Positions 40,922 to 42,927 of a stretch of DNA of 64,000 nt are shown here, in pieces; within the stretch, counting starts at the first letter, position 1, and each line of letters begins with the position of its first letter. Origin of the DNA: an uncultured Spirochaetota bacterium (GTDB lineage: Bacteria; Spirochaetota; Brevinematia; Brevinematales; JAOACQ01); contig CAWAOD010000009.1 in assembly GCA_963783575.1 (NCBI GenBank), positions 444,153 to 508,152 of the forward strand, in the 5' to 3' direction. The notes under the pieces are model-generated. The model was not told the DNA's origin, did no database searches, and saw only the letters and a program-made list of their open reading frames with translations. The position numbers and the translations under genes were made by a program.

Positions 40922-41042
40922 TTTGTCTCCTGAACAAGAATGGTAATAGATATAATAAATATTGTCAAAATTATTAAAGCTATTGACAGATTATAAATTG
41001 TATATTACAATAGTTGTATTATACAACAATTATGGAGAAAGT

Positions 41043-41513
41043 ATGGATTTATCATCGGTAAAAATTTTCAGGGGTTATATCCGCATACTTGAGCGTGAAA
41101 TAGAGGAACAGCTCGGGTCGGAAACCGGCTGTTGCGGTGTTACTTTATCTCAATGCCACATCCTTATCGAGCTTGAAAAAAACAGTCAAAATGAAATATC
41201 AATAAAGGATTTATCTGAAATCCTTGAACTTGATAAAAGCACCCTGAGCAGGTCAATAGAAAATATGGTGAATAAAGGATGGGTGAACAGGATCGAAAAC
41301 AAAAATGACAGGCGGTTTACTTCTCTTCAGTTAACACGGGAAGGCATAAAAATTGTTGATGGAATAAATGACAGATGCAATGAGTATTACCTTGAATTAT
41401 TGAATAATATCCCTGAAGAAAAGCTTTCAATGATAACCGGCGGGATTGAATATCTTGCACAGGCTATGCGCAATATGAGAAAATCAAGTAAAAAAAATAA
41501 TAGCTGCTGTTAA
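41043..41513 (+). CDS. MarR-family transcriptional regulator with vicinal Cys pairs (CC near N-terminus, CC at C-terminus)
   Basis: Winged helix LSEILELDKSTLSRSIENMVNKGWVNRIENKNDRRFTSLQLTREG. ETGCCGVTLSQCH near the N-terminus and ...NNSCC at the C-terminus. GGAGAAAG RBS before the ATG at 41043. Confidence 0.7.
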   Translation: MDLSSVKIFRGYIRILEREIEEQLGSETGCCGVTLSQCHILIELEKNSQNEISIKDLSEILELDKSTLSRSIENMVNKGWVNRIENKNDRRFTSLQLTREGIKIVDGINDRCNEYYLELLNNIPEEKLSMITGGIEYLAQAMRNMRKSSKKNNSCC

Positions 41514-41532
41514 TACCAGTTTATGGAGGTTA

Positions 41533-42606
41533 ATGATGAATAGAGCAAATTCCTGCGGATGTGAAACAAATCCGCCTGTATTGGAAAAAGAAAAATGGAT
41601 GGAAAATATAATCAAAATCAATGATATCAGCATTCCAGTTGTTTCTACAAGATTGACTCTTGTAGACATAATTGGCGGATGGATGGTACGCTGGGGCATC
41701 CGGAGAAACAATTACAGAATCCGGCCGGGATTATATGCCGTGGGAATACCGGACGATAATTCTCCGGTGCTTGCAACTGCAAACTATAAATTGACTTTTG
41801 ACAAACTGAGAAAGGAATTGGGCGGCTTAAATGTCTGGATACTTGTACTTGACACGAAAGGCATTAATGTATGGTGCGCCGCCGGCAAAGGCACTTTCGG
41901 GACTAAAGAACTGGTTGAAAGAATAATATCCATTAATTTAAACTCCGTTGTTTCTCATAAAAAAATAATCCTTCCTCAGCTTGGAGCAGTCGGTGTAGCG
42001 GCGCATAAGATAAAGAGCTTCACAAAATTTGAGGTAGTTTATGGCCCGGTGAGAGCATCAGATATTCGGAAATTCATAGCGGATAACTTTGTCAAAACTT
42101 ATGAAATGCGCCGGGTTAATTTTTATCTTATCGACAGGCTTGCAGTTATAGGTATTGAGTTTGTAACCGGATTGAAATGGCTGGCAGTAATATTATTGCT
42201 AATAATAGGCCTTAACGTACTTACAGGCCGATTTACGCTTGATAAAATTATTATGGATATTGTTCCGTTTTTTGGCGCTATACTTACGGCCACTGTTTTA
42301 TTTCCCGCCCTTCTTCCCTGGCTTCCCTTCAGGGCTTTCTCCTTAAAAGGTTTTATTCTGGGTGGCATTTGGGCAGTTTTTATCACATTTTTTTATAAAA
42401 TGACTTTTGTTCCCGCCTTAAGTATATTCCTGCTCCTTACCCCAATTACATCATTCATAGCGATGAATTTTACCGGAACAAGCACTTTTACCTCGCAGTC
42501 TGGAGCTGAGCTTGAAGTAAAAATCGGAACGCCGATTATGATAACTATGCTTGCTTTAGGTTTTATATTAAACATTCTTTTGCGTTTTAAAATAATTTCA
42601 TTATAA
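41533..42606 (+). CDS. hgcA: mercury methylation corrinoid protein HgcA
   Basis: N-terminal corrinoid-binding domain carries the family cap-helix signature GINVWCAAGKGTFGT (N[VI]WCA[AG]GK). The C-terminal about 130 aa form 5 TM helices. GGAGG RBS. Followed 12 nt later by a Cys-tailed ferredoxin. Confidence 0.85.
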   Translation: MMNRANSCGCETNPPVLEKEKWMENIIKINDISIPVVSTRLTLVDIIGGWMVRWGIRRNNYRIRPGLYAVGIPDDNSPVLATANYKLTFDKLRKELGGLNVWILVLDTKGINVWCAAGKGTFGTKELVERIISINLNSVVSHKKIILPQLGAVGVAAHKIKSFTKFEVVYGPVRASDIRKFIADNFVKTYEMRRVNFYLIDRLAVIGIEFVTGLKWLAVILLLIIGLNVLTGRFTLDKIIMDIVPFFGAILTATVLFPALLPWLPFRAFSLKGFILGGIWAVFITFFYKMTFVPALSIFLLLTPITSFIAMNFTGTSTFTSQSGAELEVKIGTPIMITMLALGFILNILLRFKIISL

Positions 42607-42618
42607 AGAGGTCTTATT

Positions 42619-42927
42619 ATGGATTATAAATATCTTATGAACGGCAGGAGTCTTGTTATTGATGAGGCCAAATGTTTCGGCTGCGGGATGTGCCTGGAGG
42701 TCTGTCCGCATAATGTGTTCCTTATGGAGGATGGAAAGGCTTTTATTAATAACAGGGATTTTTGCATGGAATGCGGTGCCTGTAAAATGAATTGTCCAGT
42801 TGGGGCTATAAATGTTAACGTTGGAGTAGGATGCGCCGCGGCGATAATAAATGGGATACTACATAGGACAGTGCCGGATTGCGGATGCTCTTCCGGAGAT
42901 AAAAAAGAAAATGCCTGCTGCGGATAA
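42619..42927 (+). CDS. hgcB: mercury methylation ferredoxin HgcB
   Basis: Two CxxCxxCxxxCP [4Fe-4S] motifs (CFGCGMCLEVCP, CMECGACKMNCP) plus a C-terminal Cys-rich tail (CGC...CCG) characteristic of HgcB. AAGAGG RBS. Confidence 0.8.
   Translation: MDYKYLMNGRSLVIDEAKCFGCGMCLEVCPHNVFLMEDGKAFINNRDFCMECGACKMNCPVGAINVNVGVGCAAAIINGILHRTVPDCGCSSGDKKENACCG

Follow-up and report, generated by a model that had tools for sequence, protein, structure and literature searches.

A cysteine-rich MarR-family regulator gene with a conserved putative operator precedes hgcAB in an uncultured spirochaete

The control of hgcAB expression and the native role of HgcAB are open questions in mercury biogeochemistry, and the abundance and transcripts of hgcA are often poor predictors of methylmercury production. 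The only hgcAB regulators put to the test so far are the ArsR-type proteins of Desulfovibrionaceae. Here, we ask what a MarR-family gene does directly ahead of hgcA and hgcB in a 64-kb stretch of DNA (contig CAWAOD010000009.1; "the window" denotes this whole stretch) from an uncultured spirochaete. Our reading, to which we give a probability of about 0.78, is that the three genes form an operon autoregulated by a MarR-type repressor, with a thiophilic metal(loid) as the proposed effector.

The two methylation genes were judged by NCBI curated equivalog cut-offs (NCBIfam). The hgcA product (41533 to 42606, + strand; 357 amino acids; corrinoid protein of mercury methylation) scored 409.1 bits with NF040863 (HgcA_corrinoid; cut-off, 275), and the hgcB product (42619 to 42927, + strand; 102 amino acids; 2x[4Fe-4S] ferredoxin) scored 115.5 bits with NF040864 (HgcB_ferredoxin; cut-off, 99). 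These profile scores agree with an earlier annotation made by a model from the letters of the window (the original prediction), which had raised a fused HgcAB-like protein as the alternative; the model for that non-methylating paralog, NF043039 (HgcAB_like), gave 198.5 bits, under its cut-off of 285. Because the equivalog cut-offs were passed and the fusion-paralog model stayed under its own, the pair is, with high confidence, a genuine hgcA and hgcB and not the fused paralog.

Details of both proteins fit the family, much as had been predicted. HgcA contains GINVWCAAGKGTF; the cap helix NVWCAAGK of the corrinoid domain occupies residues 112 to 119 (41866 to 41889), with Cys115 encoded at 41875 to 41877, and the motif is present in 116 of 120 HgcA homologs. 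The five transmembrane helices that had been proposed are compatible with residues ~203 to 357 (~42139 to 42603), which are hydrophobic in about five blocks (Kyte-Doolittle windows of at least 1.6), as read from hydropathy. HgcB starts exactly 12 nucleotides (nt) after hgcA, as had been stated, and has two CX2CX2CX3C motifs (residues 19 to 29 and 49 to 59), Cys72, and the C-terminal pair Cys100-Cys101 in the ending ...ACCG; a C-terminal CC or CxC was found in 62 of 68 related HgcB proteins. The cap-helix Cys, the C-terminal membrane domain, and an hgcB that stands as its own gene beside hgcA and encodes two [4Fe-4S] motifs, a Cys past the second cluster, and a C-terminal Cys pair are all shared with the HgcA/HgcB system described by Parks et al. 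2013 (model, Pseudodesulfovibrio mercurii ND132), whereas the window system differs in its Brevinematia-like host, in an N-terminal CxC of HgcA, and in being known here from its genes alone. This CxC reads CGC (Cys8 and Cys10; 41554 to 41562); 60 of 120 homologs have a CxC among their first 40 residues, and we know of no role assigned to it. The closest other public HgcA is 56% identical. Since HgcA and HgcB are the established system that methylates Hg(II), the source organism is a putative methylmercury producer.

How the pair might be controlled can be read from the layout of the locus. All three open reading frames (ORFs) of the original prediction are present on the + strand. Its starting position of 40962 is merely the first TTG; the regulator gene (41043 to 41513, + strand; 156 amino acids) almost certainly begins at the ATG at 41043, which matches the public gene call and is preceded by a ribosome-binding site (GGAG, 41034 to 41037). 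The gaps to the downstream genes are short (19 nt between the regulator gene and hgcA, 12 nt between hgcA and hgcB), each downstream gene has its own ribosome-binding site (GGAGG precedes the ATG of hgcA), and no convincing terminator-like site was found between the three genes. We therefore describe 40983 to 42927 as an operon of a MarR-family repressor gene, hgcA, and hgcB, with moderate confidence in co-transcription.

The predicted promoter is sigma-70-like (40983 to 41011, + strand), with a −35 hexamer TTGACA (40983 to 40988), a 17-nt spacer, and a −10 hexamer TACAAT (41006 to 41011); it is the best such site of the region, a candidate by consensus match alone (11 of 12 positions) in an uncultured spirochaete. 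Two nucleotides past the −10 hexamer and over the expected transcription start lies a perfect palindromic putative operator, GTTGTATTATACAAC (41013 to 41027). Next to it, a degenerate half-copy, ATTGTATATTACAAT (40997 to 41011), agrees with the family operator at 12 of 15 positions and is an inverted repeat that overlaps the −10 hexamer. Regulation of hgcA by a riboswitch or other RNA was rejected, as an Rfam scan of the whole window returned just three tRNAs and no element within the operon.

Whether the regulator belongs with hgcAB or merely stands beside it was examined across genomes. A motif scan of one genome per species (185,579 species) gave 132 relatives of the regulator, of which the best 80 were examined; the genome that holds the window is not in this set of species representatives. 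In 67 of these 80 species genomes, the order is regulator, hgcA, hgcB on the same strand, and the gap between regulator and hgcA is at most 60 nt in 58 of 66 related loci. The linked hosts belong to Spirochaetota, Desulfobacterota/Syntrophia, Acidobacteriota, Bacillota, KSB1, Calditrichia, Wallbacteria, Moduliflexus, Aminicenantes, Opitutales, Bacteroidota, and Myxococcota. Pairwise protein distances were correlated between regulator and HgcA (Pearson coefficient, 0.66) as between HgcA and HgcB (0.58; Mantel P ≤ 0.001 for both); common descent of the organisms may account for part of this. A larger conserved gene cluster was rejected: clustering the flanking ORFs of 68 loci gave no family present in more than 10 loci, and the window neighbours (rluD, a 74-amino-acid ORF, and a GGDEF response regulator gene) are not conserved partners. 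At one locus, in a Bryobacteraceae metagenome-assembled genome (MAG; SPRUCE 635, L048, 6001 to 7080), the regulator is followed ~430 nt downstream by an hgcB-like match with hgcA undetected, where hgcA may have been lost or degraded or the assembly may be at fault.

Among 65 metagenomic hgcA loci, all relatives of the window hgcA with enough upstream sequence and so a sample biased towards relatives of the query, a MarR-type gene stood directly upstream in 14 (~22%), an ArsR-type gene in ~10, and an ArsC-type gene in 4 (six of the ArsR/ArsC assignments were checked by Pfam). ArsR-type regulators directly upstream of other hgcA genes (L097, 371 to 700; L117, 616 to 987; L147, 3267 to 3599; L086, 3341 to 3718) have Cys-rich ends (...GCCE, ...GCCDTACC), like the MarR-type regulator and HgcB, and these tails may be a convergent feature.

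The palindrome ahead of the regulator gene travels with it. GTTGYATNATRCAAC has a single perfect match in the window, over the operon promoter, and recurs ahead of the regulator gene in other phyla. With up to two mismatches, it was matched 54 times in 7,723 positions upstream of the regulator genes (−110 to −12) and 8 times in the 838,578 remaining positions of the same loci, a ~730-fold enrichment. Such sites occur in 49 of the 80 related loci, and two adjacent sites, as in the window, at many of them. Comparison of these genomes thus gives high confidence that the operator is conserved and that the regulator is a conserved one dedicated to hgcAB. The original prediction had called the regulator dedicated, which the linkage bears out, and also unusual, which the many phyla sharing the cassette and its frequency at metagenomic hgcA loci contradict.

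Nor is the arrangement undescribed, as had been thought possible. In 112 genomes, McDaniel et al. 2020 (PMC7438021) found hgcAB directly preceded by a conserved gene, which they reported as a putative transcriptional regulator. It was first noticed in MAGs from Stordalen Mire (Myxococcales, Acidobacteria, Opitutae, and Actinobacteria), and its transcripts were detected where hgcAB was expressed; members were called with the authors' own hidden Markov model (E < 1e-10) at 0 to 2 genes upstream of hgcAB, a range in which the window regulator also lies. Zhang et al. 2023 (PMC10349881) noted MarR-family genes upstream of hgcA in the cultured methylators Dethiobacter alkaliphilus and Geobacter daltonii. 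Our related loci include Stordalen "fen_" MAGs (L033, L046, and L076), of Myxococcales and Acidobacteria, and an Opitutales MAG from another source. Because dataset and taxa overlap, the regulator of McDaniel et al. is very probably the subfamily studied here, which is likewise immediately upstream on the same strand and likewise spread over unrelated phyla. In the passages of these two papers that we draw on, the regulator is given by its presence only, and they hold no Cys signature, operator, or arsM link; neither were these three found in the full-text literature searched (hgcA or hgcAB with MarR, and arsM with MarR; not all journals covered). The hgcAB pair is ordinary and its regulator was noticed earlier and never characterised; new here, as far as the literature searched shows, are the signature CC-X6-CH with a C-terminal CC, the 15-base-pair (bp) operator, and the arsM link.

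What kind of protein the regulator is follows from profile searches. It matches Pfam MarR_2 (49.6 bits; cut-off, 27; E, 4e-13) and MarR (44 bits; cut-off, 24.6; E, 2e-11), as the original prediction of a Cys-rich MarR protein would have it, and carries 6 cysteines in 156 residues. Membership of several better-known groups was rejected: ArsR/SmtB, the ArsR2 type (HTH_5, 19 bits; cut-off, 22; E, 0.0013), AdcR (NCBIfam AdcR_fam_Zn_TF, 29 bits; cut-off, 175), OhrR (NCBIfam, 32.3 bits; cut-off, 200), curated MarR (NCBIfam, 38 bits; cut-off, 240), and BilQ and other curated regulator families, whose cut-offs were far above the scores obtained. Few proteins belong to the subfamily (at E ≤ 1e-30, 333 of 1.84 billion representatives; generic MarR matches at E ≤ 1e-3 number ~80,000), and the nearest other public homolog of the regulator is 56% identical.

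The signature of the window regulator consists of Cys30-Cys31, Cys38-His39, Cys112, and a C-terminal Cys155-Cys156; that of the subfamily is CC-X6-CH plus a C-terminal CC, in homologs within the motif E-T-x-C-C-G-V-T-L-x-Q-C-H. CC-X6-CH is present in 114 of 120 homologs and the C-terminal CC in 83 of 120; every sequence in an alignment of 115 of the 120 best homologs has Cys31 and Cys38, and Cys30, His39, and Cys112 each occur in at least 90% of them. An AlphaFold2 monomer (predicted local distance difference test [pLDDT], 91.5) has the canonical MarR fold of six helices (3 to 31, 35 to 46, 54 to 61, 65 to 77, 99 to 120, and 125 to 152) and a wing (81 to 97), as have AdcR/ZitR, OhrR/SarZ, and Escherichia coli MarR; the best fold matches are MepR, MarR, PefR, and AdcR. 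In this model, helix 1 has Cys30 and Cys31 in its last turn, helix 2 has Cys38-His39 in its first, and helix 5 holds Cys112. Zn-dependent MarR proteins bind their metal near the helix 1-helix 2 junction and the helix 5 region, and the candidate sensing residues of the window regulator are placed near this junction and helix 5. The regulator falls far under the curated cut-offs of the AdcR, OhrR, and MarR families, and the CC...CH signature is absent from the closest solved MarR structures compared.

ArsR2 offers a functional comparison. In Desulfovibrionaceae, arsenic-responsive regulators of ArsR type are established as upstream partners of hgcAB, and the ArsR/SmtB-type ArsR2 shares a transcript with hgcAB in Pseudodesulfovibrio and Desulfovibrio (Goni-Urriza 2020; Gionfriddo et al. 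2023, bioRxiv). The window regulator shares its position, its presumed role as a small, Cys-rich, winged-helix repressor upstream of hgcAB, and an arsenic connection, and the other frequent gene ahead of hgcA in our survey is of ArsR type; by analogy, it may work in a similar manner. It is nevertheless not of the ArsR2 type, because HTH_5 stays under its cut-off (19 bits against 22, compared with 50 bits for MarR_2), and its cysteines are arranged otherwise (CC-X6-CH and C-terminal CC instead of Cys47/49/86/88).

The arsenic connection comes from the members that are not linked to hgcAB. No hgcA stands beside the regulator in 13 of the 80 genomes, and in 7 of these 13, arsM is the next gene after it. 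Three of the arsM genes were scored, at 300 to 366 bits on the arsenite methyltransferase model (cut-off, 263), and are followed by genes for an ArsN1-like acetyltransferase, ArsR, an oxidoreductase, and ACR3. These arsenic clusters with arsM, headed by the regulator gene, are found in Bacillota, Clostridia, and Acidobacteriota (L069, 6467 to 11331; also L049, L058, L060, L070, L071, and L077). Other non-hgc neighbours are an ArsN1-like gene, a gene for an S-adenosylmethionine (SAM) methyltransferase with a DUF2284 protein gene, and a gene for a BtuF-like binding protein. The last case is a Pelotomaculum propionicicum MGP locus (L074, 6001 to 7261), where the regulator has two upstream operator copies and adjoins a convergent gene for a BtuF-like (vitamin B12-type) substrate-binding protein, and neither hgcAB nor arsM. 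The non-hgc regulators retain Cys30, Cys31, Cys38, His39, and the C-terminal CC, and they keep the operator, which is found at all seven arsM-linked loci (two mismatches or fewer). A single separate arsM-linked clade was rejected, as these members take three positions among the hgc-linked ones (neighbour-joining tree without support values). Because the non-hgc, mostly arsM-linked members keep both the Cys signature and the operator, one sensor type appears, from these comparisons, to serve two metal(loid) methylation systems, hgcAB and arsM.

The mechanism that we propose would run as follows. A regulator dimer would bind GTTGTATTATACAAC and its degenerate neighbour and occlude RNA polymerase. 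Because these sites cover parts of the regulator's own promoter, namely the −10 hexamer and the transcription start, all three genes would be repressed together, the regulator gene included (autoregulation). Polymerase occlusion is the usual MarR logic, and by this analogy we hold repression with moderate confidence. The cluster of Cys30-Cys31, Cys38-His39, and the C-terminal Cys-Cys would bind a thiophilic metal(loid), either As(III), Hg(II), or a methylated form; binding would shift the affinity of the regulator for DNA and so set the expression of hgcAB, whose products HgcA and HgcB would then transfer a methyl group to Hg(II).

A metal(loid) is proposed because the Cys and His residues are conserved, because non-hgc members are linked to arsM, and because the hgcA-linked ArsR-type regulators have Cys-rich tails of their own. 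Vicinal Cys pairs are typical of As(III) and methylarsenite binding in ArsR proteins, and MerR typically coordinates Hg(II) through a tri-thiolate site. That the effector is a metal(loid) we hold at less than even odds. The broader proposal, that MarR proteins with CC-X6-CH and a C-terminal CC are an uncharacterised class of thiolate-based metal(loid) sensors that switch on hgcAB and arsM, is tentative, and we would sooner bet against it than for it. Such sensors would be, as far as known, the first members of the MarR family for As(III), Hg(II), or a methylated metal(loid): we know of no MarR-family sensor for As or Hg, none was found in the literature searched, and no MarR-type regulator of arsenic methylation was found described there.

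The conserved cysteines also allow other accounts of the regulator. As a redox switch, it would react to oxidation of this anaerobe, for example by O2 or peroxide, with a disulfide linking the Cys30/31/38 region to the C-terminal CC, possibly across subunits, and its DNA binding would change, as in OhrR, SarZ, and MgrA. OhrR and SarZ are among the sequence-related solved MarR proteins and have the same overall fold; the AlphaFold2 model puts conserved cysteines at the end of helix 1 and past helix 6, and disulfides of 2-Cys OhrR-type sensors link roughly these regions. The cofactors of HgcA and HgcB are oxygen-sensitive, which makes redox control of hgcAB plausible. We nevertheless consider a redox switch unlikely: the match to the OhrR family is poor (32 bits, where 200 are called for), redox sensors need one or two cysteines whereas the regulator has two vicinal Cys pairs plus a Cys-His pair, and its partner genes serve metal(loid) methylation (hgcAB, arsM/ars) and not peroxide defence.

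Quite unlikely, too, is a regulator that senses an organic or cofactor ligand of methyl transfer (S-adenosylhomocysteine [SAH], a corrinoid, or folate), its cysteines being structural, for example in a dimer-stabilising Zn site. Sharing of the regulator between hgcAB and arsM cuts both ways here. Both partner systems are methyltransferases, but what they have in common is a thiophilic metal(loid) substrate and not the methyl donor, as ArsM uses SAM and HgcA uses a corrinoid. A purely structural role would also leave unexplained the C-terminal Cys pairs of the hgcA-linked ArsR-type regulators and of HgcB. For an organic ligand speak the habits of the family, most characterised members of which bind small organic molecules (structures bound to salicylate and indole-carboxylate and the heme sensor PefR are among the fold matches), the response of ArsR2 of ND132 to SAH-related treatments as well, and the BtuF-like B12-binding protein gene beside one non-hgc member (L074). 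That the regulator is just an ordinary MarR gene that happens to be a neighbour, kept there by shared ancestry or co-transfer, we find very improbable and strongly disfavour. MarR genes are very common, with the ~80,000 representatives given above, and gene order can persist by descent in related genomes; against this, the linkage extends over more than 10 phyla in which every other neighbour differs, the subfamily is small and distinct at its 333 representatives, only a few nucleotides separate regulator and hgcA, and the operator lies over the sole upstream promoter.

An autoregulated operon under a metal(loid)-responsive repressor remains our preferred reading, and the following points weigh against it. 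At two mismatches or fewer, the operator is present at 49 of the 80 related loci and not at every one. Promoter, DNA binding, and repression are predicted from a consensus match and from the behaviour of the family. Over the subfamily as a whole, Cys112 is not conserved; the CC tail past helix 6 is modelled at low confidence (pLDDT, ~62), and the structure is a monomer model from which distances between cysteines are not derivable. The cysteines could have another role, in redox switching, in structural Zn binding, or in an Fe-S site. The sign of the response could be the reverse, with the metal acting as a co-repressor that promotes DNA binding, as it does in Zn-dependent MarR proteins such as AdcR. 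Carrying hgcAB is a predictor of methylation capacity, not proof of it for this organism. Finally, the very probable identity with the regulator of McDaniel et al. 2020 is drawn from matching datasets and taxa.

With this locus, the long list of putative methylators gains a Brevinematia-like spirochaete, and the window is a further example of a second, phylogenetically broader hgcAB regulatory cassette. Its comparison with related loci yields three reagents for a study of the effector, namely a protein signature and an operator, both defined, and the link to arsenic methylation. If the metal(loid)-sensor class is real and acts in many anaerobic phyla, one small protein and a 15-bp operator could reveal which signal induces hgcAB in a large share of environmental methylators; this would also bear on what hgcAB is "for."

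The host and the surroundings of the operon are unremarkable. ValS is 65 to 77% identical to a group with the named members "Brevinematia bacterium" and "Spirochaetes bacterium GWF1_51_8" and ~57% identical to proteins from other phyla, which by similarity places the host with Brevinematia-type Spirochaetota; a taxonomic assignment was among the checks listed in the original prediction. The lineage is less noteworthy than that prediction held, as hgcAB of Spirochaetota, including a Brevinematales MAG (L007), is already public. The window is ordinary chromosome, with valS, recA, argJ, argC, fhs, a SerB-like gene, rluD, cyclic di-GMP signalling genes, flgN/flgK, and three tRNAs. A horizontal-transfer island was rejected, since the flanks are housekeeping genes (valS, recA, argJ, argC, fhs, and rluD), there is no striking jump in GC content, and the nearest transposase is 19 kb away. 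This DDE transposase gene (DUF772 plus DDE_Tnp_1_6; 62334 to 63818) sits at the window's right end, where both GC skew and AT skew climb sharply.

Upstream of the operon, fhs (formate-tetrahydrofolate ligase; 37077 to 38709, − strand) is split by one extra base into two overlapping ORFs, with the junction near 38395 to 38410 reading as normal protein sequence in the other frame; the split reflects an indel of the assembly or else a pseudogene of very recent origin. The methyl-folate pool, to which fhs contributes, is presumed to supply HgcA. Cyclic di-GMP genes lie around the operon (a response-regulator phosphodiesterase, 34485 to 36380; a response-regulator GGDEF cyclase, 43482 to 44696; and an HD-type protein with a periplasmic binding domain, 45832 to 48282), and these three are not conserved beside hgcAB in the other genomes examined. 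A 74-amino-acid ORF with hydrophobic stretches (43229 to 43453) lies 300 nt past hgcB; it matches no family and is likewise not conserved beside hgcAB elsewhere. The description of the lineage as flagellated has some support in flgN and flgK (59548 to 62057), and that of an adhesin-rich one in a 1,333-amino-acid protein (4576 to 8577) with a weak Ig-like Big_13 match. This protein is one of several encoded by large ORFs (411 to 1,333 amino acids; 1505 to 4156, 4576 to 8577, 22142 to 23377, and 57703 to 59397) with no or weak Ig-like Pfam/NCBIfam matches, which may be lineage-specific surface proteins.

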